Below are positions 27,473 through 43,328 of a stretch of DNA of 64,000 bases, in pieces; the first letter of the stretch is position 1; each line of letters begins with the position of its first letter. The stretch is taken from the NCBI GenBank assembly GCA_035275065.1, contig DATENM010000023.1:71215-135214 (forward strand). Reading direction: 5' to 3'. Made by a program: the position numbers and the translations under genes. The DNA is from Blastocatellia bacterium (GTDB lineage: Bacteria; Acidobacteriota; Blastocatellia; UBA7656). The notes under the pieces are model-generated. The model was not told the DNA's origin and ran no database searches. It saw only the letters and a program-made list of their open reading frames with translations.

Positions 27473-28387
27473 CTATTTATCTCGCTTTTCTTTCAGGAAG
27501 GTTCCCTCCTGCAATTCGGTGAATGCCTGGCGCAGTTGTTCCTGTGTGTTCATTACAATCGGGCCGTACCAGGCGACCGGCTCTTCAAGCGGCTTTCCAG
27601 AAACCAGCAGGAAGCGGATTCCGTCATCGCCAGCTTGCACCGCAACTTCGTCGCCGCGATCAAAGAGGATCAGCGAGCGGTTGTCCGCCTCTACGGGAGG
27701 AGAAGTGTCCAGCCACTTGATTGCCTCGGTCGGCACAGCGAGCGGCTCCGAAGCATTGCAGAATTTTCCGCTGCCGGCAAAAACATAAGCGAAGGCGTGG
27801 CGCGCGGTCTCAACGGGAAGCGTTTTTCGCCGGCCCGCAGAGACCGACACGTCAAGGTAAATCGGATCAGCGGCGACGCCATTGACAGGGCCGGTTTTCC
27901 CCCAGAAGCTGCCGCAGATGACGCGCACGTGTGTGCCATCGTCATCTGTGACCTCTGGAATGTCTGCGGCCTTCACTTCTTGATAACGCGGGGCAGTCAT
28001 CTTCAGAGCGGACGGCAGATTGCCCCATAACTGAAACCCATGCATCCGCCCCGCCGGATCGCCCTTTGGCATCTCCTGATGAATGATCCCGCTGCCGGCG
28101 GTCATCCACTGCACATCACCGGCACCGATGACTCCATTGTTGCCCATGCTATCGCCATGCTCGACGGTTCCCGCCAACACATAGGTGATGGTCTCGATGC
28201 CGCGATGCGGGTGCCACGGAAATCCTGCCAGATAGTCCTCTGGGACATCGTTGCGGAAATCATCAAGCAAGAGGAAGGGGTCAAAGTCCTTGGTATTGCC
28301 AAAACCGAATGCCCGACGCAGATGCACACCGGCACCTTCGAGCGTCGGTTTCGACTTGCTCAATCGCTTAACAGGTCGGATTGACAT
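27473..28387 (-). CDS. Pirin-family cupin protein
   Basis: HPHRGIETITYVLAGTVEHGDSMGN matches the pirin N-terminal cupin signature. 304 aa. Confidence 0.85.
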   Translation of the reverse strand: MSIRPVKRLSKSKPTLEGAGVHLRRAFGFGNTKDFDPFLLLDDFRNDVPEDYLAGFPWHPHRGIETITYVLAGTVEHGDSMGNNGVIGAGDVQWMTAGSGIIHQEMPKGDPAGRMHGFQLWGNLPSALKMTAPRYQEVKAADIPEVTDDDGTHVRVICGSFWGKTGPVNGVAADPIYLDVSVSAGRRKTLPVETARHAFAYVFAGSGKFCNASEPLAVPTEAIKWLDTSPPVEADNRSLILFDRGDEVAVQAGDDGIRFLLVSGKPLEEPVAWYGPIVMNTQEQLRQAFTELQEGTFLKEKRDK

Positions 28388-28594
28388 CTGAACTCCTCCG
28401 CAGAATATCTCTGCTAATTAAGGTAGAATCCTGCCGCGTCCTGGGTGGAGGGCCGACGAGGATGTTGTGTGTGATAGAAATGCTTTGTTGCATGCTTATT
28501 CTTCGATGCGCCGCAGCCGCCAACATGATTCTTACCATCCTATGGACGACGAAGCAAAAGAGGTAGGGTAACGCCGCGGCATCAGCGAAGCGCA

Positions 28595-28670
28595 ATACCA
28601 CTATAGGGGGATGCTCCCATACTCTTTAAAGTGGTAGCGAAAAACCATTCGTTTTGGTGATGTACTGCTC
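28595..28670 (+). repeat. Intergenic element copy A, subtype A/D (TACCAC...GTGGTAGCGAAAAACCATTCGTTTTGGTGATGT), upstream of the SRPBCC gene
   Basis: Direct alignment with copy D gives about 75% identity over about 70 nt. It contains the inverted repeat TACCAC/GTGGTA around a ~30-nt spacer. Confidence 0.7.
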
Positions 28671-28725
28671 GCCCCGGGCGCTCATAATCAGAAACGATGT
28701 GACACCACCCAAGTAAGGAGAACAC

Positions 28726-29187
28726 ATGTCAACGATTCACCTCCACCAGACAACCACCTTGACGCCCGAGCAGTACGTCGCCGGGCTCACAGACTTCGGG
28801 CCTGGCCGCGCGAAGCTCTTTGGCAACAGCGCTGACGAGTACCTCAAGGTGCATGATCAGGGCCGCACGCAGGCCGACGTGACGGAAGGCTCAGGCGGCA
28901 TCTGGGAACGCCTGCATTACGACTGGTCCGATCCTAACCGCGTCGTCCTCACAACGACCGACTCCAACTTGTGGGGAGGCGCGTCGGGCCACACTTACAC
29001 CTTCACGCGTCGGCCCGACGGCATGACCGACATTGACGTGGTCGTCGTACGCGACGGCAAGAATCTCAAGGGGCGGCTGCTCGGCTTCGTGGTCGGGACC
29101 ATCGGCAAGGGCGTTTTGGAAAAGGCGTTTAAGAACTCCGTCAAAGCCCTCGAAGCCCGGAACAGCGAGAGGAAAATGCATGCCTAA
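28726..29187 (+). CDS. SRPBCC (polyketide cyclase / START-like) family protein
   Basis: 153-aa ORF whose composition and length fit the SRPBCC fold. There is no sharper call. Confidence 0.5.
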   Translation: MSTIHLHQTTTLTPEQYVAGLTDFGPGRAKLFGNSADEYLKVHDQGRTQADVTEGSGGIWERLHYDWSDPNRVVLTTTDSNLWGGASGHTYTFTRRPDGMTDIDVVVVRDGKNLKGRLLGFVVGTIGKGVLEKAFKNSVKALEARNSERKMHA

Positions 29188-29193
29188 ACGGGC

Positions 29194-29712
29194 ATGGAAG
29201 CCACTGACCAAGAAACGTGGGAGCTCTACCTCGCAGGTATTCCGCCCGGCAAGGAAGCGCTCCTTTGGGTAACCGGCACTGTCACTCTCATAGGAGAAAT
29301 CACGATGCATCCTTTACGCAAACTACGGGAAGCTGGTAAAGCCACGCCCGCCCAGGTGAGCGCGCTGCTTGCCGAAAACATCGTATTCAAAAGCCCGATC
29401 CTGGTACGGCCGATTGAGGGGCGTGAAGTCATCGCGGCGATTTTCGCTCAGTCGAGCTCTACGCGTGGTTCCGGTACCTATACAGCCGAGTTTAAGCTCG
29501 ACGAGCGCACCACCTTCTTGCGCTGGCAGGGGACCATGGATGGCCACAAGATCGAGAGCTTGGAGGTCATCGTGGACAACGAGCAGGGGCTGATCGTGGA
29601 GCGCACTATTGCTCTTCGTCCGTATCCGGCGGTGAAACTGTTCCGCGACGCCATGTATGCATCGCTCAAGGATAAGCTGCCGCCCGATGTTTGGGACTAC
29701 CCAACGCCGTAG
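29194..29712 (+). CDS. SnoaL-like / NTF2-like family protein
   Basis: The pattern ...VSALLAENIVFKSP...GREVIAAIF...LRWQGTMDGHKIESLEVIVDNEQGLIVERTIALRP is typical of SnoaL_2 / NTF2-like proteins. The start could alternatively be the internal Met MHPLRKL. Confidence 0.45.
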   Translation: MEATDQETWELYLAGIPPGKEALLWVTGTVTLIGEITMHPLRKLREAGKATPAQVSALLAENIVFKSPILVRPIEGREVIAAIFAQSSSTRGSGTYTAEFKLDERTTFLRWQGTMDGHKIESLEVIVDNEQGLIVERTIALRPYPAVKLFRDAMYASLKDKLPPDVWDYPTP

Positions 29713-29849
29713 TGTGACCACGACGGGTCTTTTCAGATCGTTTCCTCACCATAGGAAGCATTAGCGGGGGGCAAAGTTGACACAATGCCTGTTCGTGGTT
29801 GCTGGATCACGCACGGATTCAATCAACGATACCTGAAGGAGTAATCAGT

Positions 29850-30374
29850 ATGAGACGAAAAACTTTCTTGCTTATTGTAGTTGCAATCGTGGTCGGCGTT
29901 GTCGCTTACAAGGCCCCCGCGTCTGGACAAACTGATGGGGAGGCCGCACCAGTCTTCGTAACTGAAATCCCCGCCGGATACCGCGACTGGAGGTTCATCT
30001 CTGTCGCACACGAGGAAGGCAACCTCAACAGTTTCGCTTCCGTTTTGGGCAACGACATCGCGATCAAGGCCTACCGCAAAGGCAAGCTTCCATTCCCAGA
30101 CGGCGCCATTATTGCAGCCCTACACTACCGCTTCGTCCCGTCTGCGGAAAACAATAAAGCTTTTGGGCGTGATCAATCGTTCGTCGCCGGGGCGCCGACG
30201 AACGTGCAGTTTATGATCAAGAACTCGAAGAAGTATGCCGCTACTGGAGGTTGGGGGTTCGGTCACTTCAACAGCGACGGCAAACCAGTTGACGACGCAT
30301 TTATGAAGACTTGCTTTCCTTGTCACCAGAAGATGAAAGAGAGCGATCTGGTCTTCACCCGTTACGCGCCTTGA
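29850..30374 (+). CDS. Cytochrome P460-family haem protein with a signal peptide (paralog 1)
   Basis: MRRKTFLLIVVAIV... is a signal peptide. A C-terminal CFPCH (CXXCH) motif is followed by ...DLVFTRYAP. It is paralogous to 41172-41738. Confidence 0.7.
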   Translation: MRRKTFLLIVVAIVVGVVAYKAPASGQTDGEAAPVFVTEIPAGYRDWRFISVAHEEGNLNSFASVLGNDIAIKAYRKGKLPFPDGAIIAALHYRFVPSAENNKAFGRDQSFVAGAPTNVQFMIKNSKKYAATGGWGFGHFNSDGKPVDDAFMKTCFPCHQKMKESDLVFTRYAP

Positions 30375-30585
30375 TACGCGGAACGACCGAAGAAAAGAAT
30401 GAGGCGATGGCCGCGCACAAACCGCCAATCAAGGATTCAATTGCTTTCCGGTGCATCAAGCATATGAATGCCCCTAATAGGATGACTATAAAAACGAGCA
30501 GCGTCAGAAAGAATCTAACCTTGTGCCGCCCCGGTCGCTTTGCACCTTGATCGTACCAACCCGGCGAGATGAAATGATAAGTCAT
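30355..30585 (-). CDS. Small hypothetical membrane protein (two hydrophobic segments)
   Basis: 76-aa ORF with two hydrophobic stretches (FFLTLLVFIVILLGAFICLM and LIGGLCAAIASFFSSVV) and a weak RBS. It could be a shadow ORF. Confidence 0.25.
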   Translation of the reverse strand: MTYHFISPGWYDQGAKRPGRHKVRFFLTLLVFIVILLGAFICLMHRKAIESLIGGLCAAIASFFSSVVPRIKARNG

Positions 30586-30697
30586 CCACAGCAGCGGCGC
30601 GTACCCGGTATAAGAGTGAGCCCTGAACGTCTGGACGCCATGAGAAATCCTCGGCTATAGTGCCTTCATCGCGCTACACTACAAGCTGAGGTCTCAA

Positions 30698-31930
30698 GTG
30701 GCGCTGGCACAGCACACACCGAAAGCCTTCCGCAGTTTTCAAGCCCGCCAGTCTGGCGACCTGGACTCGGCTGAGTGCTGGCGCTTGCTGAGGCCAAATG
30801 CAAGCCTCGCGACGAGCCCCTCAACGCACCCCCGTGTGACTGCAATCATCAATTCAATTTCCGCACTGGGCAAGCTCAGATGGCCAAGCGTCCTGCTGCT
30901 AGGCTGCTGCTTGCTGCTCAACGGTTGCCGCCCGCAATCGGGCAGCGTCACTCCCTCCATCGAGCTCACCAGGATTCCTCCGGCAGAAGCGGGCCGCATG
31001 GACAAGCTCGACATTATTCAAGGGCGGGTGACCGGCGCCCGTCCCGGGCAGCAGATCGTCTTATATGCCAAGGCGGGGGCATGGTGGTTACAACCCCTGT
31101 CGAACATCCCCTTCACAAAGATTCAGGCAGACTCAAGCTGGATCAACTCAACTCACCTTGGGTCGGCTTATGCGGCGCTGCTAGTCGAGCCAGGGTATCA
31201 GCCCCGCACCACGATGAGTGCGCTGCCAGAGCCGGGCGGTGATGTGGCGGCTGTAGTCATGGCGGAAGGCGCAACATCCGGGCCAAGCACCTCTCCTCCG
31301 CTTTCCTTCAGCGGCTATGAGTGGCGTGTACGCAGTGCGCCAAGCAGCCGCGGCGATACCATGAATCTCTACGACCCGGCCAATGCTTGGACTGACGCCG
31401 ACGGGGCGCTGCATCTCCGCGTCGCGAAGCAGAGTGGCAAATGGACGTGCGCGGAGGTGACCCTCACGCGTAGTCTTGGCTACGGCACTTATTCTTTCGT
31501 CGTGCGTGATACATCACAATTTGAGCCGGCGGTCGTTTTAGGCATGTACACCTGGGACTACGCCGGCGACGATCAGAACAACCGTGAGATGGATATAGAG
31601 ATCAGCCGCTGGGGCGATCCGACCAGCAAGAATGCGCAATATAATATCCAGCCTTTTTTTGTGCCGGCTAACGTAGCTCGCTTTACAACGCCCAGCGGAA
31701 TGCTCACTCATTCATTCCGCTGGGAGCCGGGAAGAGTAGCTTTCAGAACCGTTCGCGGGGCGATAAACGATCCTCGCTCTGATGTCGTCGGCGAACATGT
31801 CTTTACGTCGGGCGTTCCTTCTCCCGGTGTGGCATCGGTACGAATGGCGCTTTATGTCTACGGCAAGACCGATAACCCGGTGCAGAATGGCGCCGAGGTG
31901 GTCATCGAGAAATTTGAATACCTTCCGTGA
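30698..31930 (+). CDS. Lipoprotein with an N-terminal sensor-like domain and a C-terminal GH16-like (ExDxE) glucanase domain
   Basis: A lipobox LLLNGC lies at about residue 80, so the true start is likely downstream of 30698. The following ~110-aa domain is shared with the kinase at 35171. The C-terminus has EMDIEISRWGD, a GH16-style ExDxE motif. Confidence 0.5.
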   Translation: MALAQHTPKAFRSFQARQSGDLDSAECWRLLRPNASLATSPSTHPRVTAIINSISALGKLRWPSVLLLGCCLLLNGCRPQSGSVTPSIELTRIPPAEAGRMDKLDIIQGRVTGARPGQQIVLYAKAGAWWLQPLSNIPFTKIQADSSWINSTHLGSAYAALLVEPGYQPRTTMSALPEPGGDVAAVVMAEGATSGPSTSPPLSFSGYEWRVRSAPSSRGDTMNLYDPANAWTDADGALHLRVAKQSGKWTCAEVTLTRSLGYGTYSFVVRDTSQFEPAVVLGMYTWDYAGDDQNNREMDIEISRWGDPTSKNAQYNIQPFFVPANVARFTTPSGMLTHSFRWEPGRVAFRTVRGAINDPRSDVVGEHVFTSGVPSPGVASVRMALYVYGKTDNPVQNGAEVVIEKFEYLP

Positions 31931-34900
31931 CTGGAACATAGAAGCTCGCTGGCCATTCAGGTGGCTGGTGGCGGGGCTGATCATGGTCTCTTTTGCGGCT
32001 AGCACGCGGGCCTTAGATCCTAATCGGGCGATGTCCGACTACGTGCGTGACCGATGGGTCAACGAACAGGGATTTCCGGGCGGGCCTGTCTACGCCATTA
32101 CGCAAACCGCCGATGGGTATCTCTGGGTCGGCACGGAGAGGGGGCTGGTTCGCTTCGACGGATTAAGCTTCCGCCTGTTCGATCATACGAACTCTGCCGC
32201 GCTTCCGGCTGGTCCCATTCTCGACCTGATGGCAGACGTTGACGGAAGCCTCTGGATACGACCGCAGAGCCGGAATATGCTGCGTTACCAAGACGGAGTC
32301 TTTCAAGATGTCATGGCTGACCTCGACCCGGCGCGCCCAGGGGTCACGGCAATGTGTAGAGGCCCGCGTGGCGAAGCGCTGTTTGCGGTGCGCGGCTCGG
32401 GCATCTTCAGGGATGACGGTGGAAGATTTGTAAAGCTGGCCAGCACGGCTGAACATTCTAACTGGCTGGTCATCTCCCTGGCGGAGATGGCCGATGGCAA
32501 AGTCTGGGTAGGAACCAGAGATGCCGGCCTCTTTTCTATGAGCGATGGCCAGCTTGTCGCCTTGACGAATGGGGTGCCTGACAAAAAGATCAATTGTCTT
32601 CTGGCGGCTGGGGGTCGTGAATTGTGGGTCGCCACTGACAGTGGCATCGTGCGACAGAGCGGCGACGCGCCGGCGATGGTTCGCGGCACGGGCTCGCTCG
32701 ATCAAACGCAGGCCCTTGCAATGCTCAGCGACCGCCAGTCGAACATCTGGATCGGCACCAGCAACGGACTGTTGCGGGTCAACGCCAGCGGGGCGGCTTC
32801 ACTGGAAGCAAACGACCGCCGTTCGACCGGGGCTGTGAACACGATTTTTGAAGACCGCGAAGGCAATCTCTGGGTCGGAACGACGCAAGGTCTTGAGCGC
32901 CTGCGTGACACAGCTTTTATGACCTATGCGGTTTCGAGCGACTCTGCGTCACAGGGGAATGGTGCCATTTACGTTGACGGCGATGGCCGCACCTGGTTTG
33001 CCCCTTCGAGCGGCGGGCTCTTTTGGCAGCAGGGCGGACAGACGGGACAGGTGAAGAACGCCGGACTTGACCGAGACGAAATCTATTCGCTCGCGGGCAG
33101 TGCAGGCGAGTTGTGGGTAGGCCGTCGGCGAGGCGGGCTGACCCGGCTCAGGTACAACGGGAGTTCCTTCACGGCTGAGACCTATACGCGGGCCGGCGGA
33201 CTCGCTCAAGACAGCGTCTACGCCGTTCATCAGAGTCGCGACGGCAGCGTCTGGGCGGGAACCGTCAGCAGCGGCCTCAGCCGGCTGAAGGACGGCAAAT
33301 TCATCACCTATACAACCGCACAAGGTCTGCCCTCGAACTCTATAACCTCGATCCTGGAAAGCTCCGACGGGAGCATGTGGTTCGGGACGGCGAACGGATT
33401 GTGTTGGTTATCACATGATCGCTGGGCAGTCTATACGGACCTGGATGGCCTGCCACCTGGAAACATCAACTGTCTGATGGAAGATTCCAGCGGCATGATC
33501 TGGATCGGCACCGACAACGGGATTGCGATTCTCAGTGACGGCGACATTCAAGTTCCTCGTGAAGTGCCCGAAGCCTTACATGCAACGATATTGGGATTAG
33601 CCGAGGATCAGAATGGGCGGCTCTGGATCGCGACGACTAATCATGTATTGCGAGTTGACCGCGACCGGATACTGAGCGGCGTGATCGTCGAAACCGACAT
33701 ACGAGAGTTCGGTCTTGCCGACGGGTTACGCAGTGTCGGAGGAGTAAGGCGCCACCGGTCGGTCATCAGGGACGCGCTCGGACGCATCTGGCTGTCTACC
33801 GGAAGCGGGCTTTCGGTCGTTGATCCGCGGCAGGTGGCAGACCGTTCAACCCCCGCTCTGGTCCGCATCGAAGGGGTGACGGCGGATGGCAGCGCCGTTG
33901 ATCTTCATGGCGCGCTACATATTTCAAGCGCCCGCCAAAGGATCATCTTCAGCTATGCGGGCCTGAGCCTCACGGTGCCTGATCGCGTCAGGTACAAGTT
34001 TAAGCTGGATAGCTTCGATCAAAACTGGAGCGAGCCGGTCGCCAGCCGCGAGGCCGTCTACACGAACCTCGACCCCGGCCCCTATCGCTTTCGGGTCATG
34101 GCAAGCAACAGCGACGGACTCTGGAATAGTGCGGAATCAATCATCCAAATCGAGATTGATCCGGTATTCTGGCAGACCTGGTGGTTTCGCCTCTCAGTCT
34201 TGATGTCTATCGCGCTGGCCGTACTCGTCTTTTACCGCTTGCGCCTGCATCATCTAGCCAAACAGTTGAACCTGCGGTTTGAAGAGCGGCTCGCCGAGCG
34301 CACGCGCGTTGCTCAAGACTTGCACGACACCTTGCTGCAAGGGTTCTTGAGCGCGTCGATGCAGCTCCACGTCGCCGCCGATCATTTGCCCGAAGGGTCG
34401 GCGGCAAAGCCGCTAGTCAATCGCGTGCTCGACCTGATGCGGCAAGTGATCGAGGAGGGGCGGACGGCGCTGAAAGGTCTGCGTTCGTCTGATCGCGGCA
34501 TTCACGATCTCGCCCAGTCATTCTCCGACATTCAGCAGGAACTCGCCCTCGAAGCGCGAATAGATTATCGCGTCAGCGTCGAAGGGCGTCCCAGGCCCTT
34601 ACACCCTGTCATCCGCGATGAAGTCTACCGCATCGGTCGCGAAGCCGTGGTCAATGCGTTTCGTCACTCCCGTGCCGACACCATCGAAGTTGTGCTCGAA
34701 TACGCGTCGAAACAGTTAAGAATGCACATCCGCGATAACGGCTGTGGGATTGATCCGCAGGTGCTCAACACAGGGCGCGAAGGGCACTGGGGACTTTCAG
34801 GCATGCGCGAGCGGGCCGAAGAGATTGGTGCGAGGCTGAGACTCTTTAGCGCCGCCGACGCCGGTACGGAAGTCGAACTCCTCATCCCCGGCCATATCGC

Positions 34901-35000
34901 CTTTGAAACTTTGCCCTCTGACCGCCGCCGGTGGGTCGCCAGATTGATTGCGCTAAAAACAAGGCCGGAAAAGGCAAAAGCCAAACGGCAAGGAAAGTAG
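31887..35000 (+). CDS. Sensor histidine kinase with a periplasmic beta-propeller (Reg_prop / Y_Y_Y) sensor, one TM segment, HisKA_3 and HATPase_c; no receiver domain
   Basis: It has repeated ...LW(V/I)GT..GL.R... propeller motifs, a TM segment WWFRLSVLMSIALAVLVFY, the HisKA_3 motif ERTRVAQDLHDTLLQG and a C-terminal ATPase domain. The start is uncertain, with candidates from 31782 to 31983. Confidence 0.7.
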   Translation: MAPRWSSRNLNTFRDWNIEARWPFRWLVAGLIMVSFAASTRALDPNRAMSDYVRDRWVNEQGFPGGPVYAITQTADGYLWVGTERGLVRFDGLSFRLFDHTNSAALPAGPILDLMADVDGSLWIRPQSRNMLRYQDGVFQDVMADLDPARPGVTAMCRGPRGEALFAVRGSGIFRDDGGRFVKLASTAEHSNWLVISLAEMADGKVWVGTRDAGLFSMSDGQLVALTNGVPDKKINCLLAAGGRELWVATDSGIVRQSGDAPAMVRGTGSLDQTQALAMLSDRQSNIWIGTSNGLLRVNASGAASLEANDRRSTGAVNTIFEDREGNLWVGTTQGLERLRDTAFMTYAVSSDSASQGNGAIYVDGDGRTWFAPSSGGLFWQQGGQTGQVKNAGLDRDEIYSLAGSAGELWVGRRRGGLTRLRYNGSSFTAETYTRAGGLAQDSVYAVHQSRDGSVWAGTVSSGLSRLKDGKFITYTTAQGLPSNSITSILESSDGSMWFGTANGLCWLSHDRWAVYTDLDGLPPGNINCLMEDSSGMIWIGTDNGIAILSDGDIQVPREVPEALHATILGLAEDQNGRLWIATTNHVLRVDRDRILSGVIVETDIREFGLADGLRSVGGVRRHRSVIRDALGRIWLSTGSGLSVVDPRQVADRSTPALVRIEGVTADGSAVDLHGALHISSARQRIIFSYAGLSLTVPDRVRYKFKLDSFDQNWSEPVASREAVYTNLDPGPYRFRVMASNSDGLWNSAESIIQIEIDPVFWQTWWFRLSVLMSIALAVLVFYRLRLHHLAKQLNLRFEERLAERTRVAQDLHDTLLQGFLSASMQLHVAADHLPEGSAAKPLVNRVLDLMRQVIEEGRTALKGLRSSDRGIHDLAQSFSDIQQELALEARIDYRVSVEGRPRPLHPVIRDEVYRIGREAVVNAFRHSRADTIEVVLEYASKQLRMHIRDNGCGIDPQVLNTGREGHWGLSGMRERAEEIGARLRLFSAADAGTEVELLIPGHIAFETLPSDRRRWVARLIALKTRPEKAKAKRQGK

Positions 35001-35020
35001 AGCCGTGCGGTAAGCCTGAT

Positions 35021-35100
35021 CCACTACCACTTTCGTGTTATTAAAAAATTACTGACTGTAGGGATTCGCTTTTCAGTTGGAACCCATACTCTACGAGAGG
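35021..35100 (+). repeat. Divergent member of the intergenic element family (CTACCAC...AAAAAATTACTGACTGTAGGGATTCGCTTTTC), upstream of the second kinase
   Basis: It shares AAAAAATT.CTG.CT.TAGGGATTCGCTTT with the copy at 37100-37190 and the CTACCAC motif with copies B and C. Confidence 0.5.
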
Positions 35101-35170
35101 ACTGCTGTACCGCTGGAAACAATCTTGTGAGGCTGACAACGACAGCCTGGCTCCTCCGAAAAAAAGAACC

Positions 35171-36445: not shown

Positions 36446-37075
36446 ATGAGTGACCCGGCAAGCATCCGCGTCTTTAGCGTTGACGACCACCCCCTGCTGC
36501 GCGAGGGGATTGCCGCCATCATCAACAATCAACCGGATATGCAGATGATCGCTCAGGCGGCCACCGGCGGCGAAGCCATTCAACTGTTCCGACAGCATCA
36601 GCCCGACGTGACGCTCCTGGATTTGCGACTCCCCGATATGAGCGGCATTGATGTCTTGATCGCCCTGCGGTCGGAATTCCCCCAGGCGCGCGTCGTCATG
36701 CTGACTACATTCGAAGGCGACGTAGACATACGGCGTTCGCTTGAGGCCGGCGCGCGCGGTTATATGCTCAAGAATATGCCGCCGAAAGATCTGGTCGAAG
36801 CCATCCGCCAGGTACACGCAGGCAAGAAGCGCATCCCGGCGGAGGTGGCGGCCCACCTGACCGAGTTTTTCGGCGACGATGATTTGACCGGGCGCGAGAT
36901 AGATGTCCTGCGGCAGGTCGCCAGCGGCAACCGCAATCGCGAGATCGGCGAACATCTCTTCATCTCTGAAGAGACGGTCAAGGTGCACATCAAGCACATC
37001 ATGGAAAAGCTGGGCGCGAGCGACCGCACCCAGGCGGTGGCCATCGCCGTACGCCGCGGCATCATCCAGTTGTGA
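36446..37075 (+). CDS. NarL/LuxR-family response regulator (receiver plus HTH)
   Basis: Receiver motif: RVFSVDDHPLLREG...DVTLLDLRLPDMSG. LuxR HTH: LTGREIDVLRQVASGNRNREIGEHLFISEETVKVHIKHIMEKLG. Confidence 0.9.
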   Translation: MSDPASIRVFSVDDHPLLREGIAAIINNQPDMQMIAQAATGGEAIQLFRQHQPDVTLLDLRLPDMSGIDVLIALRSEFPQARVVMLTTFEGDVDIRRSLEAGARGYMLKNMPPKDLVEAIRQVHAGKKRIPAEVAAHLTEFFGDDDLTGREIDVLRQVASGNRNREIGEHLFISEETVKVHIKHIMEKLGASDRTQAVAIAVRRGIIQL

Positions 37076-37099
37076 GTGGCCTGCCTGACACAAGGCGCG

Positions 37100-37190
37100 A
37101 TCACGGAAGTGGTATAAAAAAATTCCTGCCTTTAGGGATTCGCTTTCCGTATGGGATGATTAATCTAAAGTAGAGGAGCGCCGCAAGTAC
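37100..37190 (+). repeat. Divergent member of the intergenic element family (GTGGTATAAAAAAATTCCTGCCTTTAGGGATTCGCTTTCC), upstream of DoxX
   Basis: It resembles the core GTGGTAGCAAAAAACCATTCC of copies B and C, and the 35021 copy downstream of that core. Confidence 0.5.
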
Positions 37191-37217
37191 ACCGATGACG
37201 GTCAAGGAGGCCCGGAC

Positions 37218-37643
37218 TTGCAAAGGCTATTTTTCTCTACATTCGCCGGCGGAAAACCCGGCATCGGCTTGCTGCTGTTGCGAGCCGGTGTCGGTTCGGC
37301 CGCCATCACGCAAGGCGGAGTCTATCTGGCCGACCGCAGCAACCTATCGCTTTGGACGTGGGCCATCGGGTTGTTGGCTATCGTCTGCGGCACCTCTCTT
37401 CTCATCGGCTTTCTGACGAAAGCGGCCTGCGTGTTGACGGCACTCGCGAGCATCGCCGTCGCGCTGCCGTGGCTGCCGGCCCCGCCGCTGAGTCTATTCA
37501 ATAGCAAACCGTCGCTCATCTTCGTGAATATCATGGCTGTCGCGATTATTCTGCTCGGGCCGGGAGCGTTTTCGCTCGATGCCCGTCTGTTCGGACGCCG
37601 CGAGATTATCATCCCGCACAATAACCGCTCGCCCAAATGCTGA
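37218..37643 (+). CDS. DoxX-family membrane protein
   Basis: 141 aa and hydrophobic, with a LLLLRAGVG...GPGAFSLDA pattern. Confidence 0.65.
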   Translation: MQRLFFSTFAGGKPGIGLLLLRAGVGSAAITQGGVYLADRSNLSLWTWAIGLLAIVCGTSLLIGFLTKAACVLTALASIAVALPWLPAPPLSLFNSKPSLIFVNIMAVAIILLGPGAFSLDARLFGRREIIIPHNNRSPKC

Positions 37644-37666
37644 TTGTCGTGCCGCCTGAATCGCGG

Positions 37667-37780
37667 CTACCACAATCGGGGTATCTCCATGCCCCACCGA
37701 CAGTGGTAGCAAAAAACCATTCCTTCTCGTGATGTGATCTTCGCTCTGATCCGCCATAGTGTGGGGTAGGGGCCACAGAG
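37667..37780 (+). repeat. Intergenic element copy B, subtype B/C (CTACCACAATC...AGTGGTAGCAAAAAACCATTCCTTCTCGTGATGTGATCTTCGCTCTGATCC), upstream of the alpha/beta hydrolase
   Basis: About 80% identical to copy C over about 110 nt. It has a nested inverted repeat, CTACCAC/GTGGTAG outside and GGGG/CCCC inside. Confidence 0.75.
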
Positions 37781-37804
37781 ACTACGAACAACGAAGGAGG
37801 ACTT

Positions 37805-38809
37805 ATGAGTGGTACAACAACGTCGCAGGCCGAAAGGCCGTTGGATGTCGCTGCCGACCCACGGCTTTCGCGGGGCACGAAGGCATTCTTAGAAGTCTTG
37901 AATTCTGCGGGCGGCCCGCCGCTTGAGGCTTTGCCGCCGCTCGTCGCGCGCGAGGTGCTGGTCAATGCACAGGCATCGGTCTCGGTTGACCTGTCAGGCA
38001 TCGAGGAGTCCGAAAAGACGATCAACGCCGATGGCTACACGATCAAGCTCAACATCGTGCGCCCGGCCGGTGTTAAAGGGCAATTGCCGGTCTTTGTCTT
38101 CATACATGGCGGCGGCTGGGTGTTGGGTGATTACCCGACGCACAAGCGCATGGTTCGTGACCTCGTCGTGCTTTCGGGGATGGCCGCTGTTTTCGTCAAC
38201 TATACGCGCACGCCCGACGCGAAGTATCCGCAGGCGATCAACGAAATCTACGCCGCCACCCGCTGGGTGGCCGAGCACGGCGGCGAGATTGATGTCGACG
38301 GCAAGAACCTGGCCGTCGTTGGCAACAGCGTCGGCGGCAATATGACGGCGGCGACCGCGCTGAAGGCGAAAGAGAATGGCGGCCCGCAAATCAAGCTTCA
38401 CATCATGATGTGGCCGGTGACAGACGCGAACTTCGAGAGAGAGTCATTCAAACAGTTCGGCGAGAAGCGTTTCCTCACGACGCCGTTGATGAAGTGGATG
38501 TGGGACCTCTACACGACTGACCCAAACCAGCGAAAGGAAATCTTCGCATCGCCCTTACAGGCCACAGCGGAGCAGTTGCGAGGCTTGCCGCCGGCGTTGA
38601 TTCAGGTCGCCGAAAGCGACATCTTGCGTGACGAGGGCGAAGCCTACGGGCGCAAGCTGGACGAGGCCGGCGTCGAGGTGACGACGGTGCGCTACAACGG
38701 CATGATTCATGACTTCGGGCTGCTGAATGGTTTGGCAGAAGAACCCGCCGTTCGTTCCCTGTTCAAACATGCGGCGGCGGAGTTGAAGAAATACCTGCGA
38801 CCGGAGTGA
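37805..38809 (+). CDS. Alpha/beta hydrolase, fold-3 (carboxylesterase/lipase-type)
   Basis: HGGGW oxyanion motif (FVFIHGGGWVLGD), a GNSVGG nucleophile elbow, and ...MIHDFG at the C-terminus. Confidence 0.8.
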   Translation: MSGTTTSQAERPLDVAADPRLSRGTKAFLEVLNSAGGPPLEALPPLVAREVLVNAQASVSVDLSGIEESEKTINADGYTIKLNIVRPAGVKGQLPVFVFIHGGGWVLGDYPTHKRMVRDLVVLSGMAAVFVNYTRTPDAKYPQAINEIYAATRWVAEHGGEIDVDGKNLAVVGNSVGGNMTAATALKAKENGGPQIKLHIMMWPVTDANFERESFKQFGEKRFLTTPLMKWMWDLYTTDPNQRKEIFASPLQATAEQLRGLPPALIQVAESDILRDEGEAYGRKLDEAGVEVTTVRYNGMIHDFGLLNGLAEEPAVRSLFKHAAAELKKYLRPE

Positions 38810-38873
38810 GGATGGTCGGCTGCCGCGCGCAGGTGAGGGCCGCGTTGCGAATCCCTCGGTCAGGCGCGGCGGC

Positions 38874-40589
38874 TTGCCTTCGGCAAGCGAAGGGGCTACA
38901 CCTAGTCCTATGAGCGACAGACCGCTACTTAATTCATCGGCGCAGGCGTCACGCTTCGACGAGATGGTGCCGAAGCTGACAGAGGCTCAGATGGCGCGCC
39001 TCGCTGCGCACGGCCACGTGCGGCGGGTCGAGCGTGGCGAGGTGCTGGTCGAAGCCGGCGAACGCACGGCGCAATTCTTTGTCGTCGTCGCCGGTCAGAT
39101 CCAAATCGTCAGACCGACGAGCACGAGCGAAGACCTCATCGTCGTCTACGGACCCGGTATGTTCACAGGCGAAGTGAATCTGCTTTCAGGCCGCCGCGGC
39201 TTCGCCCAAATCCGCGTCAGCGAGTCGGGCGAAGTCATCGAAGTGGAGCGTGATCGGTTGCTCGCGCTCGTGCAAACCGACAGCGAGCTGAGCGACATCC
39301 TGCTGCGCGCATTCATCCTCCGCCGCGTCGAGTTGATTGCGCATGGATTCGGCGACGCGGTCCTAATCGGGTCGAACCATTGCGCGGGAACGATTCGCAT
39401 TAAAGAATTCCTGACGCGCAACGGCCATCCCTACGCGTTCATCGACCTTGATCACGACTCAGGCGTGCAGGACTTGCTTGATCATTTCCGGGTCGGCGTC
39501 GAAGACGTGCCCGTGTTGATCTGTCGCGGCGAGATTGTGCTTCGTGATCCGAACAATCAGCAGATCGCCGACTGTCTCGGCTTCAACGAAGCCATAGACC
39601 AGACGCACGTCCGCGACCTGTTGATCGTTGGCGCAGGCCCCGCGGGATTGGCGGCGGCAGTCTACGGTGCGTCGGAAGGACTGAACGTGCTGGTGCTGGA
39701 AGCCAACGCGCCGGGCGGGCAGGCCGGTTCGAGTTCTAAGATCGAAAACTACCTCGGCTTTCCCACAGGCGTTTCAGGACAAGAACTCGCGGCGCGCGCC
39801 TACACGCAAGCGCAGAAGTTCGGCGCCGAGCTGCTGATTGCAAAAGGGGCCAGCCGTATCGCATGCGAGCGCAAGCCTTACGCCGTCGAAATCGTCAGCG
39901 GGCCGCGCGTGCCGGCGCGCACGATCATCATCGCTACGGGCGCAGAGTACCGCCGGCTGCCGCTCGATAATCTCTCGCAGTTTGAGGGTGCGGGGGTCTA
40001 CTACGGCGCGACCTTCGTCGAGTCGCAGTTGTGCCGCGGTGAAGAAATCATTGTCGTGGGCGGCGGCAACTCGGCGGGACAGGCGGCGGTGTTTCTCGCG
40101 CAGTCGGCCAGGCGCGTGCACTTGCTCGTGCGCTCAGACGGGCTGGCGGAGACGATGTCGCGCTACCTGATTCGCCGCATCGAAGAGAACCCGGCCATTG
40201 TCCTTCGACCAAACACCGAAATCGTTGCCCTTGAAGGAAGCGGCCATCTTGAGCGCGTGCGCTGGCGGAACAATCAGACCGGCGAGAGCGAGACTCGCGC
40301 GATCAACCATGTTTTTAGTATGGCCGGCGCAGTTCCAAACACGCACTGGCTCGCGGGCTGCGTCGCGCTTGACCGGAAAGGCTTCATCAAGACGGGGCCG
40401 GATTTAACGCCGGAGGATTTGGCGGCGGCGCATTGGCCGCTCACGCGGGCGCCGCGCCTGCTCGAAACCAGTCTGCCCGGTGTGTTCGCCGTCGGCGATG
40501 TGCGCGGCGGCAGTCTCAAGCGCGTGGCGTCGGCGGTCGGCGAAGGCTCAATTGCCGTCGCCTTCGTACATCAAGCGCTGCATGAATAA
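38874..40589 (+). CDS. Cyclic-nucleotide-binding domain fused to an FAD/NAD(P)-binding thioredoxin-reductase-like oxidoreductase that lacks the CxxC redox pair
   Basis: The N-terminal cNMP-binding-like region is ...GEVLVEAGERTAQFFVVVAGQIQI... The Rossmann motifs are VGAGPAGLAAAVYGA and VVGGGNSAGQAA. There is no CxxC anywhere in the protein. The start could be the internal MSDRPL. Confidence 0.7.
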   Translation: MPSASEGATPSPMSDRPLLNSSAQASRFDEMVPKLTEAQMARLAAHGHVRRVERGEVLVEAGERTAQFFVVVAGQIQIVRPTSTSEDLIVVYGPGMFTGEVNLLSGRRGFAQIRVSESGEVIEVERDRLLALVQTDSELSDILLRAFILRRVELIAHGFGDAVLIGSNHCAGTIRIKEFLTRNGHPYAFIDLDHDSGVQDLLDHFRVGVEDVPVLICRGEIVLRDPNNQQIADCLGFNEAIDQTHVRDLLIVGAGPAGLAAAVYGASEGLNVLVLEANAPGGQAGSSSKIENYLGFPTGVSGQELAARAYTQAQKFGAELLIAKGASRIACERKPYAVEIVSGPRVPARTIIIATGAEYRRLPLDNLSQFEGAGVYYGATFVESQLCRGEEIIVVGGGNSAGQAAVFLAQSARRVHLLVRSDGLAETMSRYLIRRIEENPAIVLRPNTEIVALEGSGHLERVRWRNNQTGESETRAINHVFSMAGAVPNTHWLAGCVALDRKGFIKTGPDLTPEDLAAAHWPLTRAPRLLETSLPGVFAVGDVRGGSLKRVASAVGEGSIAVAFVHQALHE

Positions 40590-40602
40590 CAAGGAGACGA
40601 GC

Positions 40603-40872
40603 ATGGCTGATGTTACTTGTCCTCATCTCGACGAGATCACGACAGTCAAACACGCGAAGCGCCGCGAGTGCGAAGAGTGCGTGAAGATCGGCGCGCGCTG
40701 GGTTCATCTACGCACCTGCCAGGAGTGCGGCACGACGCTATGCTGCGACAACTCGCCGAACCGCCACGCCACCAAACATGCGCAAGCAAGCGGGCATCCG
40801 GTGATCGCCTCGGCAGAGCCCGGCGAGCGATGGCTGTACTGCTATCCGCATGACGCCTTCGCGGAATACTGA
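40603..40872 (+). CDS. Standalone UBP-type zinc-finger (zf-UBP) domain protein
   Basis: 89 aa with a zf-UBP-like Cys/His pattern: CPHL...C..C......W.HLRTCQECG...CC.....HA..H...SGHP.......WLYCY. Preceded by an AAGGAG RBS. Confidence 0.6.
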   Translation: MADVTCPHLDEITTVKHAKRRECEECVKIGARWVHLRTCQECGTTLCCDNSPNRHATKHAQASGHPVIASAEPGERWLYCYPHDAFAEY

Positions 40873-41029
40873 GCCGACTAATCCCGACGCCACCGACCAT
40901 TTCAGGCGCAGGCGGATTGACTCACTCAGCGTTGCCCTCTTGGCTCTAGCTTCTGTCTGGTGCGGTTCGGCGACGCTTTTCTGCAACACGACCCGACCAT
41001 CTTCGGGCCGAACTCCATCCCGATCCCAT

Positions 41030-41145
41030 CTACCACAATCAAGGTATCTCGGTTGCCGCCAATAGTGGTAGCAAAAAACTATTCCTTCTCGTGATGTGTT
41101 CTCGCTCCAGATTGCTTATGGTGTTGATCAGCGCGACGGACGATT
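41030..41145 (+). repeat. Intergenic element copy C, subtype B/C, upstream of the second cytochrome P460 gene
   Basis: CTACCACAATCAAGGTATCTCGGTTGCCGCCAATAGTGGTAGCAAAAAACTATTCCTTCTCGTGATGTGTTCTCGCTCCAGAT. Aligned directly to copy B. Confidence 0.75.
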
Positions 41146-41171
41146 GGTTCGTCTTGGCAGGAGGAACGTTT

Positions 41172-41738
41172 ATGAGACAGAAGATTTTCTTGCTGGTTGC
41201 AGTTGCAGCCCTGACCGCTGTGATCGCCTATATGGCACCCGCATCTGGACAAGCCGATGGAGAGGCCGCACCAATCTACGGGATTAAGCTCCCTGCGGGA
41301 TATCGCGATTGGCGCATGATCTCCGTCGCCCACGTTGGGGAACCTCTGAACGATCTACGCGTCAAACTGGGCAACGATATAGCGATCAAGGCTTATCAAG
41401 AGGGAAAGCCATTTCCTGACGGCGCGATTATTGCCCGGCTCGCCTATCGAGCGGTCACGTCGGAGGAAAACAACCTAGTCTTTCGCGCGGCTGCCGAGCG
41501 ACAAGGTCTCCCGCCTGAACAGGTGACGAAGCTCTTAGCCGGGTCGTTGGTGGCCGGCCCCGCGACCAACGTTCAGTTCATGGTCAAGGACTCAAAAAAA
41601 TATGCCGCGACCGGCGGCTGGGGCTTCGCTCAATTCACCAATGATAAACCTGACGGCGCGGCGCTGCACAAGACCTGCTATGCCTGCCACGCGCCCGCCA
41701 AAGATCACGACTTTGTCTTCACTCGTTACGCGCCTTAA
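41172..41738 (+). CDS. Cytochrome P460-family haem protein with a signal peptide (paralog 2)
   Basis: MRQKIFLLVAVAALTAV is a signal peptide. It has CYACH (CXXCH) followed by ...DFVFTRYAP at the C-terminus. About 55% identical to 29850-30374. Confidence 0.7.
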   Translation: MRQKIFLLVAVAALTAVIAYMAPASGQADGEAAPIYGIKLPAGYRDWRMISVAHVGEPLNDLRVKLGNDIAIKAYQEGKPFPDGAIIARLAYRAVTSEENNLVFRAAAERQGLPPEQVTKLLAGSLVAGPATNVQFMVKDSKKYAATGGWGFAQFTNDKPDGAALHKTCYACHAPAKDHDFVFTRYAP

Positions 41739-41800
41739 TGAATCAGCTTGCACCTGATCGTTGAAGGGGCGTAGATCGACGACAAACCATAGGAGATACC

Positions 41801-42490
41801 ATGAAACAAATCACTAACGGCGACTTGAAGCTAGAGGCGGTCGTCATCCCTGTTTCGGACGTTGACCGCGCAAAGGAGTTCTACGGAAACCTTGGTTGGC
41901 GACTCGACGCCGACTTCGCCTTCGATAACGGCCTCCGTGTCTTGCAGTTCACGCCGCCCAACTCGGCTTGCTCGATCCAATTCGGCAGCAACGTCACCTC
42001 GGCTGCGCCCGGCTCGGCCCAGGGCTTCTATCTGATCGTTTCTGACATCGAGTCTGCACGCAACGAACTCGCGAGCCACGGGGTCGATGTTAGCGAAGTA
42101 TTTCACGCCGGGACGCCCGGCGCGCAGTTCCAGTCCGGCAGCAGCGGGCGCATCAGCGGGCCTGCGCCCGATCATGAGAGCTACCGCTCGTTCGCCACAT
42201 TCAGTGACCCGGATGGAAATGGCTGGCTGCTCCAGGAGGTCACGACGCGGCTTCCGGGCCGCGAGTGGGAGGAGACGCGAGCCGAAGCTACGGATGTCGC
42301 AACCCTTGCAGAGCTTCTTCACGAGACAGAGGAGCACCACGGCCAATTCGAGAAGACGCATGCCGAGCACCGTTGGTCGGACTGGTACGCGCCCTACCTG
42401 AGCGCGCGCCAGCAGGGGAGCAGTCCGGAGCAGGCCGCCGCCGCAGCCGACCGCTACGCGGAGGAGGTCCTTCACATTCTTCCCCGATGA
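41801..42490 (+). CDS. VOC (glyoxalase / bleomycin-resistance) family protein
   Basis: 229 aa with the VOC-type pattern ...LEAVVIPVSDVDRAKEFYGNLGW....FYLIVSDIESAR.EL...G.. Confidence 0.65.
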   Translation: MKQITNGDLKLEAVVIPVSDVDRAKEFYGNLGWRLDADFAFDNGLRVLQFTPPNSACSIQFGSNVTSAAPGSAQGFYLIVSDIESARNELASHGVDVSEVFHAGTPGAQFQSGSSGRISGPAPDHESYRSFATFSDPDGNGWLLQEVTTRLPGREWEETRAEATDVATLAELLHETEEHHGQFEKTHAEHRWSDWYAPYLSARQQGSSPEQAAAAADRYAEEVLHILPR

Positions 42491-42588
42491 AGCCCTACGA
42501 GCGAAGGCATTCTCCAAGTCAGCCGACCGCTGGGGTAGTGACTGTCTTCTACAGTGACTGCCTGAGGAAACCATGACCACCACAAACA

Positions 42589-42798
42589 CAATCTCTCCGC
42601 CCCTGCGCGAACCCTAACTTCAGGGGCAGATCGTCGTCGTGATCGGCGGCAGCTCCGGAATCGGACTTGAGACAGCCAGACGAGCACGCGCCGAGGGAGC
42701 CGACGTTGTCATCACCGGACGCAACCCGGAGCGCCTCCAGCAGGCGGCGCGAGAACTCGATGCGCGGAGCAGCGCCGCCTTTGACGCGGTTGAAGCCT
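42589..42798 (+). pseudogene. Short-chain dehydrogenase (SDR) N-terminal remnant, interrupted by an in-frame TAA and truncated after about 60 codons
   Basis: MTTTNTISPPLREP then a stop, then LQGQIVVVIGGSSGIGLETARRARAEGADVVITGRNPERLQQAARELDARSSAAFDAVEA and another stop. The SDR cofactor-binding motif GGSSGIG is present, but the catalytic part is absent. Confidence 0.5.
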
Positions 42799-42900
42799 GA
42801 CGCTTCAAGGAGACAAAGCCCTTGCTGTTTAGTGTACGAGGTCGCAAGCTTTCCACTCGGGTTCCCGTTAAGATTGAAGTGGTCTTAGAGGTGTCCGACT

Positions 42901-43197
42901 ATGAATGCCTGGAATCAAAATCGCCTGACCGCGAGACTCGGGATTGACTATCCCATCATTAGGAGTGATGGCAAAGACACAAATCGCAACAGCAACAACG
43001 AAGGGAGAAGGAACTGCCGCGTACCTTTATGTACGGCGGTATGGGAGACCAGATTTTGGCTTAGTAGCCCGGGCCAGGATGGTCCTCGCTTAGCTGCTGA
43101 TCAAAGACCGGCACTGCATAAGCGAACCGTAGTACCACGAAATAGGGATGCCTCGCTACCCTTGAAAGTGGTAGTGAAAAACTATTCGATTTCGTGA
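42901..43197 (+). pseudogene. Possible nitronate-monooxygenase N-terminal remnant within non-coding-like sequence
   Basis: Only the first ~20 aa (LTARLGIDYPIIR) resemble the NMO N-terminus. The rest of the ORF has a low-complexity, non-coding-like composition. Confidence 0.25.
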
Positions 43198-43205
43198 TGT
43201 ATAAC
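43132..43205 (+). repeat. Intergenic element copy D, subtype A/D, upstream of the Zn-dependent alcohol dehydrogenase
   Basis: TACCACGAAATAGGGATGCCTCGCTACCCTTGAAAGTGGTAGTGAAAAACTATTCGATTTCGTGATGTATAACC. Aligned to copy A. Confidence 0.7.
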
Positions 43206-43328
43206 CTACTCCGAAGGTTCATAGTCTGTAGTCGCAAGAGCGATGAACCAGGCGATGGTTAGTAGGCAAAGGGCACGAAGGCGGCAGCGAGTGCCTTTCA
43301 ACAATGGCTTCAAATTCATGGAGGACTT

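Follow-up and report, generated by a model that had tools for sequence, protein, structure and literature searches.

A family of intergenic elements in a 64-kb stretch of DNA (64,000 nucleotides; hereafter the window) from a Blastocatellia bacterium (NCBI GenBank assembly GCA_035275065.1, contig DATENM010000023.1, positions 71,215 to 135,214 of the forward strand) probably represents the DNA-level promoters of one regulon, most likely activated by a NarL/FixJ-family response regulator (RR) encoded at window positions 36446 to 37075. The family comprises four copies, which we call A to D, accompanied by two related elements, E and F. Would such elements act as DNA or as RNA? A first-pass annotation of the same sequence had proposed either a shared promoter with a structured 5' leader or a small nonautonomous repeat. 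Our data support the shared promoter: a -10-like hexamer, at a fixed distance, closes the conserved block, which adjoins site-like palindromes that are tied to the nearby RR. We observed directly the anatomy of the elements, their conservation, their linkage to the RR operon, and an absence of RNA-type covariation. We infer the binding of the RR to these sites and its activating role, the position of the transcription start, and the sigma factor that would read the core promoter.

If correct, this reading gives an uncharacterized two-component system a binding motif, a promoter architecture, and an initial list of targets. The system, which consists of a NarL-type RR and two kinases, one of them with a beta-propeller sensor, is widespread in soil Acidobacteriota. 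To our knowledge, almost no regulons have been defined experimentally in Acidobacteriota. The targets suggest a redox or nitrosative stress response that is directly testable. The signature is that of an ordinary regulon, itself uncharacterized, with no new kind of element and no surprising mechanism, and should be useful to specialists in this phylum. A more general lesson is that inverted half-sites of adjacent operators can mimic an RNA stem.

Anatomy and conservation of the elements

The 20-mer core GTGGTAGYRAAAAACYATTC occurred four times in the window, always on the plus strand (at 28631, 37703, 41065, and 43168), with 0 occurrences expected from shuffled sequences. The pattern TACCAC-N{20,40}-GTGGTA marked the same four places (0.01 expected). 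A profile hidden Markov model built from 67 family members, run against the whole window, retrieved exactly A to D (E values of 1e-18 to 6e-22), and its sole other match was F (E=2.3). All four copies are intergenic and lie on the plus strand upstream of plus-strand genes, as the first-pass annotation had described, and all four are located within 15 kb of the regulator gene. The elements are as follows.

Copy A, 28596 to 28688, plus strand: distal TACCAC (28596-28601)-TATA-GGGGGA (28606-28611); proximal half-site GTGGTA 28631-28636; AAAAACCATTC 28640-28650; GTGATG 28657-28662; -10-like CATAAT 28683-28688; start codon of a gene for a 153-amino-acid (aa) protein at 28726.
Copy B, 37668 to 37760, plus strand: TACCAC (37668-37673)-AATC-GGGGTA (37678-37683); proximal GTGGTA 37703-37708; GTGATG 37729-37734; -10-like CATAGT 37755-37760; alpha/beta hydrolase start at 37805.
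Copy C, 41031 to 41122, plus strand: TACCAC (41031-41036)-AATC-AAGGTA (41041-41046); proximal GTGGTA 41065-41070; GTGATG 41091-41096; -10-like TATGGT 41117-41122; start of the second P460 gene at 41172.
Copy D, 43133 to 43225, plus strand: TACCAC (43133-43138)-GAAA-TAGGGA (43143-43148); proximal GTGGTA 43168-43173; GTGATG 43194-43199; -10-like CATAGT 43220-43225; alcohol dehydrogenase (ADH) start at 43329.
Element E, 35025 to 35092, plus strand, upstream of the operon of a histidine kinase (HK2) and the RR: palindrome TACCAC-TTTC-GTGTTA (35025-35040); A-tract; TAGGGATTC 35059-35067; -10-like TACTCT 35087-35092; proposed autoregulatory promoter.
Element F, 37099 to 37166, plus strand, upstream of the gene for a 141-aa membrane protein: GATCAC-GGAA-GTGGTA (37099-37114); A-tract; TAGGGAT 37133-37139; -10-like TAATCT 37161-37166.

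The family layout consists of TACCAC-N4-GTGGTA, a second GTGGTA 24 to 25 bp downstream, an A-tract with ACCATTC, GTGATG, and a -10-like cAtAgT, which in A to D begins exactly 52 nt after the proximal GTGGTA. The first unit is a 6-4-6 inverted repeat, equivalently a 7-2-7 repeat (TACCACn-NN-nGTGGTA), whose promoter-facing GTGGTA half is better conserved than its TACCAC half. This palindrome carries one to three mismatches in A to F and is perfect or near-perfect in many relatives. In A to D, the distal site is the recognizable palindrome, and the proximal site has a strong GTGGTA with a weak C-rich partner. Since relatives often show a perfect TACCAC-N4-GTGGTA at the distal position, the inner "GGGG" of the first-pass annotation can be understood as the degenerate right half of the distal palindrome (GGGGGA, GGGGTA, AAGGTA, and TAGGGA in A to D, respectively). 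The inner GGGG/CCCC pair reported for some copies is clear only in B, with GGGGG/CCC in A. Likewise, the inverse CTACCAC reported upstream of the core is present in its 7-nt form only in B and C, and as the 6-nt TACCAC in all four copies.

How many copies does the family have in the window? The first-pass annotation counted at least six, sharing the core and a downstream GTGATGT. The count and the shared sequence hold for A to D, in which GTGATGT follows the core at a fixed offset; they fail for E and F, each of which is 33 to 46% identical to A to D over 102 nt (random window segments, 26 ± 5%). Identity over the same length is 71% for A/D and 72% for B/C, below the 75 to 80% given earlier, and 51 to 60% for the cross pairs; a value of 89% is reached by B/C only within the 47-nt core. 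E and F are 56% identical to each other. They share with A to D a compact palindrome, an A-tract, and a geometry common to all six elements (GTGGTA at positions 1 to 6, A-tract, G-GAT at 27 to 31, and TAnnnT or cAtAgT at 53 to 58) but not the whole sequence. Judged by sequence, E and F are a related but distinct second type of predicted promoter. The F-type element upstream of the 141-aa gene is also kept in Blastocatellia and Terriglobia.

We collected relatives in two ways. A core-anchored scan with the 20-mer against one genome per species gave 33 loci. Eighteen of these (20 element instances) came from metagenome-assembled genomes of Acidobacteriota, including Blastocatellia, Terriglobia, Pyrinomonadaceae, and others; the other 15 lay in other phyla and were unrelated, with a single recurring sequence accounting for several of them. 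An arms-free scan of metagenomes with the pattern AAAAACYATTC-N6-GTGATG, in which both arms were free, gave 44 distinct further members. Core positions 10 to 20 were fixed by both queries, so that invariance there is not independent evidence; positions 21 to 26, which were free in the queries, were still partly conserved.

In the 20 core-anchored acidobacterial instances, the upstream part was very often a perfect TACCAC-N4-GTGGTA, and GTGATG was invariant though absent from the 20-mer query. The hexamer cAtAgT (CATAGT, CATAAT, TATGGT, and similar) was found at offset 53 to 58 from the core, with A2 invariant and T6 conserved in at least 90%. A co-oriented open reading frame (ORF) started 69 to 345 nt after the core in all 20 instances checked. 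Among the 44 arms-free members, the proximal GTGGTA was nearly invariant, and a second GTGGTA 24 to 25 nt upstream was perfect in 26 and had at most one mismatch in 34; the left arm was often CCAACC, TTCCCC, or TACCAT. Counted from the core start, positions from about -34 to +33 and 53 to 58 had high information content, which was near zero upstream of -35 and past +58. Family-wide conservation thus stops at the -10-like hexamer, which stood at a fixed offset in most of the ∼70 members examined.

A third subtype (TACCAT-GATG-GAGGTA ... GTGGTAGCG ... GCAAAGTA) is located, in divergent orientation, next to the operon of a 410-aa protein and a kinase in Terriglobia-like contigs (L059 1490 minus, L065 3744 minus, L069 5610 minus, L076 2473 minus, L118 5341 plus, and L045, L056, L062, L117, and L148). 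Its position suggests regulon promoters on both flanks of the module described below.

Linkage of the elements to a response regulator and its predicted targets

The genes that accompany the elements in the window encode the following two-component module, which also includes the 141-aa membrane protein.

Response regulator (RR), 36446 to 37075, plus strand: NarL/FixJ family, Pfam Response_reg (REC) and GerE helix-turn-helix; proposed binder of the TACCAC/GTGGTA sites.
HK2, 35246 to 36445, plus strand: HisKA_3 histidine kinase directly upstream of the RR gene; HisKA_3 and HATPase_c.
HK1, 31983 to 35000, plus strand: HisKA_3 histidine kinase; Reg_prop beta-propeller and Y_Y_Y sensor, HisKA_3 and HATPase_c.
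410-aa protein, 30698 to 31930, plus strand: no Pfam domain; belongs to the conserved module.

The RR is the sole DNA-binding protein of this module. Its closest solved relatives are VraR and NarL, DevR is another solved relative, and its recognition helix reads ETVKVHIKH, in which the Lys, Val, and Lys that make base contacts in NarL (Lys188, Val189, and Lys192) are kept. It scores below every equivalog cutoff (NarL model, 167 bits versus a cutoff of 250), and its name in the databases is generic only.

In relatives, the element adjoins orthologues of the module [410-aa protein]-HK1-(HK2)-RR-141-aa protein, usually directly behind the 141-aa gene; this is the site of copy B, which is syntenic in other Acidobacteriota. 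Linkage was seen in 6 of the 18 genome loci (RR identity, 71 to 90%) and in ∼23 of 46 metagenome loci, many of which are on short contigs, and the linked loci span Blastocatellia, Terriglobia, Pyrinomonadaceae, and other groups. To remove circularity, we fetched six loci by the RR protein alone (orthologues 86 to 88% identical, on long contigs). In five of the six, an E-type element stood directly upstream of HK2-RR; its palindrome was perfect or nearly so and was followed by an A-tract, TAGGGATTCGC, and TAyTCT. Two loci also had an F-type element just after the RR gene. The palindrome is therefore tied to the RR's own operon, as autoregulation would predict.

Two RR-orthologue loci showed further features. 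A divergent A-D-type copy at L161 10727-10820 (TAACAC-N4-GTGTTA ... GGGTAG ... CTCGTGATGT) precedes a gene of the sigma-54-activator type and then an RND/MFS efflux operon, another kind of target. At L160 (8426-10000 and 13600-16300), the kinase genes are fragmented, a transposase and an integrase lie close by, and no palindrome is recognizable; this locus is possibly a decaying copy of the two-component system.

Which genes would this regulon control? In the window, the predicted stress-type targets are P460 cytochromes, a thioredoxin-reductase-like protein with a cyclic nucleoside monophosphate (cNMP)-binding domain, a peroxiredoxin (Prx), a Zn-dependent ADH, a glyoxalase, and hydrolases; relatives also have Dps, a cupin, and an extracytoplasmic function (ECF) sigma factor. 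The genes directly after the element in relatives encode glyoxalase, ADH-Prx, P460, alpha/beta hydrolases, cNMP-thioredoxin reductase, and zf-UBP proteins, as well as cupin, NmrA-like, DUF4126, and DUF4331 proteins. These are redox and detoxification families already present in the window, but paired differently with the element, as is characteristic of a regulon. From the target genes, the signal may be redox, nitrosative, or electrophile stress, a suggestion that we make with low confidence. At 16 loci, mostly Terriglobia-like, the first gene after the element encodes an ECF sigma factor (L025, L049, L059, L065, L069, L076, L085, L086, L105, L110 to L112, L118, L133, L142, and L147; proteins 49 to 56% identical to that of L025), which suggests a cascade from the two-component system to the ECF sigma factor at these loci. 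In L016, L028, and L153, a small sigma-region-4-like gene comes first, followed in L016 by Dps. We found no relevant literature on these hexamers in connection with response regulators, or on P460 and two-component systems in Acidobacteria.

How might the RR act at these promoters? Phosphorylated RR dimers would occupy the pseudo-palindromes TACCAC-N4-GTGGTA. If transcription starts ∼7 nt after the -10-like hexamer, the two such sites that A to D carry would be centered near -91 and -66, and the one compact palindrome of E and F would lie at the same -66 position, from which the RR would drive the kinase-RR operon (autoregulation) and the next gene. The A-tract would fall at about -55 to -51, where it could be contacted by the C-terminal domain of the RNA polymerase alpha subunit (alpha-CTD); UP elements occupy this region. 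GTGATG (A to D) or GGGATT (E and F) would lie at -38 to -33. On the model of NarL and BvgA, the RR would activate transcription by recruiting RNA polymerase. The first-pass annotation had judged the spacing of the two arms too wide for a dimeric factor. This objection is resolved once its "stem" is seen to consist of the left half of the distal site and the right half of the proximal site, so that the two arms belong to two different sites. We also considered a third RR site ending in GTGATG, with its center near -40.5; its left half has no match, and the site remains a conjecture.

Several observations weigh against activation by the RR in this manner. The transcription start was placed from the -10-like hexamer alone. 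GTGATG, the best match to a -35 element, is separated from the -10-like hexamer by 20 bp, which is long for sigma-70, and a sigma-70 consensus scan called none of the six promoters, a result that fits activator dependence with a poor -35 element and lends no positive support. The 33-nt block GTGGTAG..AAAAAC.ATTC..GTGATG is more conserved than a half-site and an UP-like tract need, a conservation imposed in part by our two search patterns. The site centers are 24 to 26 bp apart (∼2.4 helical turns), which would not place the dimers on one face of the helix. TACCAC deviates from the Escherichia coli NarL consensus TACYYMT at position 5 (A). Finally, an A-D-type copy was present in only one of the six loci fetched by the RR protein, and this type is often absent within 10 kb.

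Comparison with characterized systems shows how far the likeness goes. NarL recognizes 7-2-7 palindromes, two of which, in tandem, are required at the ogt promoter (PMC10853779). As at the E. coli NarL promoters yeaR and ogt, we find a NarL/FixJ RR paired with HisKA_3 kinases, inverted heptamers that are separated by 2 bp and have TAC...GTA ends, a recognition helix that keeps the base-contacting K, V, and K, and tandem sites upstream of the core promoter as at ogt. The differences are a half-site of TACCAC in place of TACYYMT, sites that appear centered near -66 and -91 rather than at -44.5 and -77.5, a spacing of centers of 24 to 25 bp rather than 33 bp, an RR score of 167 bits against the cutoff of 250, beta-propeller/Y_Y_Y sensors, another phylum, and redox or detoxification targets instead of nitrate respiration. 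By consensus and by equivalog score, the element lies outside the E. coli-type NarL/NarP regulon proper.

BvgA, also a NarL-family RR, acts at fha and ptx from one strong upstream inverted heptad with weaker sites down to -35, a stretch that alpha-CTD shares (PMC7250471). The elements resemble these Bordetella promoters in having a good upstream inverted-heptad site and weaker ones toward -35, and BvgA-like occupancy would account for the continuous conservation from about -100 to -33. BvgA dimers, however, are 22 bp apart on one helical face, compared with 24 to 26 bp here.

In the DosR/DevR regulon of Mycobacterium, two kinases feed one autoregulated GerE-type RR, and a palindromic site is common to a dispersed stress regulon. 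Our system is alike in its two sensor kinases, single NarL-type RR, and shared palindrome, and DevR is one of the solved relatives noted above. The DNA motif differs, and the sensor domains are unrelated (GAF-heme in DosS and DosT); the likeness need not extend to the signal.

Alternative readings of the elements

Could the conserved block be read by something other than the RR? One reading, which we regard as rather unlikely, takes the 33-nt block GTGGTAG-N2-AAAAAC-N-ATTC-N6-GTGATG as the recognition element of an undescribed promoter-reading arrangement, either a dedicated sigma factor or an RR oligomer that replaces -35 recognition over a 20-bp spacer. It may be packaged as a portable promoter-leader-start-codon cassette copied before unrelated stress genes.

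Somewhat less probable is that the block is the promoter of a dedicated alternative sigma factor of the ECF type, with the RR either limited to the upstream palindrome or having no role. For a sigma-70 promoter, the block shows unusually little variation, and its distance of 20 bp to the -10-like hexamer is awkward; like ECF promoters, it is a bipartite, highly conserved motif common to a stress regulon. It also precedes an ECF sigma gene in the 16 mostly Terriglobia-like loci, as an autoregulated ECF promoter would, and the small sigma-region-4-like protein in L016, L028, and L153. ECF promoters typically have a -35 AAC and a -10 CGT 16 to 17 nt apart. In the block, however, AAC (core positions 13 to 15) and CGT (26 to 28) are separated by a spacer of 10 nt, and a profile made from the 16 homologues found no ECF sigma gene of this family in the window, which holds four copies of the element. 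The constant neighbor across classes is the RR module rather than a sigma gene. Moreover, the GTGGTA of the block recurs in palindromes, which point to a dimeric regulator; E and F put a full palindrome at that exact position, and a TATAAT-like hexamer lies at a conserved fixed distance downstream of the block. A sigma-54 promoter was rejected, as the GG and GC of TGGCAC-N5-TTGC are out of register in GTGGTAGCGAAAAACC.

A little less probable again is that the sites are operators of a different transcription factor encoded outside the cluster, with the linkage reflecting shared regulon membership and not cause. TACCAC is unlike the NarL consensus, and several RR-orthologue loci have no A-D-type copy nearby. 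Against this, the RR alone binds DNA among the conserved module proteins, the palindrome stands upstream of the RR's own operon in five of the six independently fetched loci and in the window, and the 7-2-7 symmetry with TAC...GTA ends fits a GerE-type dimer with the base-contacting residues of NarL.

Are the inverted arms instead the two strands of an RNA helix? On this reading, the element would work in cis as an RNA leader: CTACCAC would pair with GTGGTAG, enclosing an inner GGGG/CCCC helix. The predicted folds of A and B match this nested hairpin exactly (z scores of -3.1 and -2.8), and C/T at core position 16 would preserve a small UGGU/ACYA pairing; C and D, however, fold differently, and the stability of A and B (z of about -3) can be explained by their inverted half-sites. 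In an alignment of 24 sequences, no pair of the outer helix changed on both sides, four of its seven pairs departed solely by unpaired cells, the inner helix was 53% paired, and all pairing measures were within those of shuffled alignments. Because the 3' arm was fixed in this alignment, we repeated the analysis on the 44 arms-free members. The best 6-bp complement at any of seven offsets was perfect in 3 members, had five matches in 12, and had four or fewer in 29. Where the proximal hexamer itself varied (GTAGTA, GGGTTA, GGTGTA, GTGTTA, GTGGCA, CTGGTA, and GATGTA), a perfect left-arm complement was found in none of the seven cases, the best having 4 to 5 of 6 matches. Many relatives have CCAACC or TTCCCC as the left arm and keep GTGGTA twice in direct orientation, an arrangement in which the two repeats are unable to base-pair with one another.

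Conservation begins at the palindrome and ends family-wide at the -10-like hexamer, whose position downstream argues against an element within the transcript. Rfam gave no match at gathering thresholds in the whole window, and the three weak matches at E≤5 in positions 28000 to 45500 fell outside the elements. The nested stem-loop of the first-pass annotation is thus unsupported, with no compensatory changes among ∼70 Acidobacteriota relatives, and we consider an RNA leader very unlikely. An intrinsic terminator of the upstream gene was also rejected, as the stem is followed by an A-run and not a T-run. A terminator scan gave 11 sites compared to 14.3 in shuffled sequences and, among the elements, flagged only the inner GGGGGATGCTCCC of copy A.

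The A/D subtype has, in addition, a leader of its own, one hairpin of which is a further point in favor of RNA.

D-type leader, 43226 to 43328, plus strand: about 100 nt; sequence kept in 13 A/D-subtype copies from relatives.

In this subtype, the ∼100 nt that follow the -10-like hexamer are also conserved, up to and including the ribosome-binding site and the opening codons (M-A/E-T-T-K...; MATTK/METTK), in front of different genes (ADH, glyoxalase, P460, and NmrA-like; loci L008, L012, L013, L019, L021, L031, L051, L070, L132, L144, and L145). One hairpin in it is 90% paired with one compensatory pair, values not above shuffles for these 13 closely related sequences. The leaders are no more stable than shuffles (z scores of -0.7 to +0.6; RNAalifold, -2.85 kcal/mol). 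Changes in the first helix (GTCG.../...CGAC) are not compensatory. A leader peptide of eight codons (GTG AAA GAG ... TAA, in some copies) was rejected, as its start varies among GTG, TTG, CTG, and ATA and its stop is lost in others.

The least probable of all is a MITE-like (miniature inverted-repeat transposable element) or REP-like (repetitive extragenic palindrome) nonautonomous mobile repeat that is intergenic by chance. Homologous stretches of 100 nt do precede nonhomologous genes, two copies in L008 are nearly identical over >150 nt with leader and first codons included, and a duplication of 44 nt flanks copy D (42961-43004 versus 43322-43365). Nevertheless, only four copies exist in the window, all within 15 kb of the RR, and the exact 20-mer has at most three matches per representative genome. 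A co-oriented ORF lies downstream in 20 of 20 checked instances, a -10-like hexamer follows at a fixed offset in most members, and across classes the element keeps a syntenic position behind the pair of RR and 141-aa genes. Its inverted repeat lies inside the element rather than at the ends, and the 44-nt repeat at D is a duplicated gene start, not a short target site duplication (TSD; no formal TSD search was made on A to C). Low copy number, strict orientation to genes, and cross-class synteny therefore speak against the small nonautonomous repeat of the first-pass annotation, though traces of segmental duplication remain.

These traces center on copy D.

ADH gene-start relic, 42961 to 43004, plus strand: ribosome-binding site and first 11 codons of ADH, 80% identical to 43322-43365.

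About 360 nt separate the relic from the real ADH start downstream of it, and copy D lies between the two. A 98-aa ORF that contains it (42901-43197; no Pfam match) is probably not a gene. In several relatives, the glyoxalase gene is directly followed by ADH with no element between them. Together with the conserved leader and the relic, this arrangement points to a segmental duplication that carried promoter, leader, and gene start together; it looks like such a duplication set the promoter cassette between glyoxalase and ADH.

Homologous promoter DNA before nonhomologous genes of one genome has been described as putative mobile promoters, or promoter propagation (Matus-Garcia et al. 2012, PMC3488235). 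The relic and the near-identical L008 copies resemble these in indicating copying by duplication, and the two L008 copies, judged by eye, appear to reach the identity of ≥80% over 50 to 100 nt that defines them. In contrast, the window copies are 71 to 72% identical over 102 nt (89% over 47 nt), and their similarity is largely functional constraint, ancient, and syntenic.

Gene neighborhood

The window forms part of a 223-kb metagenome contig (ENA ERZ27257050, k141_1497779), and an existing annotation places its RR in a metagenome-assembled genome of Blastocatellia. The genes from 27.4 to 45 kb all lie on the plus strand except for pirin, on the minus strand. The first three on the plus strand are small genes in one operon that ends in a cytochrome P460. 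They are followed by the 410-aa protein, HK1, HK2, the RR, the 141-aa membrane protein, and the alpha/beta hydrolase, and then by the thioredoxin-reductase-like protein with cNMP-binding and glutaredoxin domains, a zf-UBP protein, and the second P460. Glyoxalase, Zn-dependent ADH, and an AhpC/Prx protein come last. Domain matches confirmed P460, the HisKA_3 kinase, the alpha/beta hydrolase, ADH, and AhpC/Prx; the SRPBCC, NTF2, and DoxX labels of the first-pass annotation have sub-threshold Pfam matches only (Polyketide_cyc2, E=0.0046; SnoaL_2, E=0.008; and DoxD, E=0.025).

A lone TGCTAC-N4-GTGGTA with two mismatches was found at 45076-45091, after the Prx gene and facing a minus-strand gene. 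We rejected it as a seventh site, as it has no A-tract, GTGATG, or -10-like hexamer; it is probably due to chance.

Paralogous stretches are present within the two-component module. The 410-aa protein and HK2 share an N-terminal stretch of DNA (30946-31068 versus 35281-35403, 72%), and the kinase cores of HK1 and HK2 are paralogous (34267-34405 versus 35715-35853, 76%). These shared stretches suggest that the module grew through duplication of its own parts; the 410-aa protein may be a paralogue with a sensor domain only. Paralogy also links the two cytochrome P460 genes (29837-30375 versus 41159-41739, about 73 to 80% DNA identity in blocks). Only the second of them has a promoter copy directly in front; the first occupies third place in the operon behind copy A.

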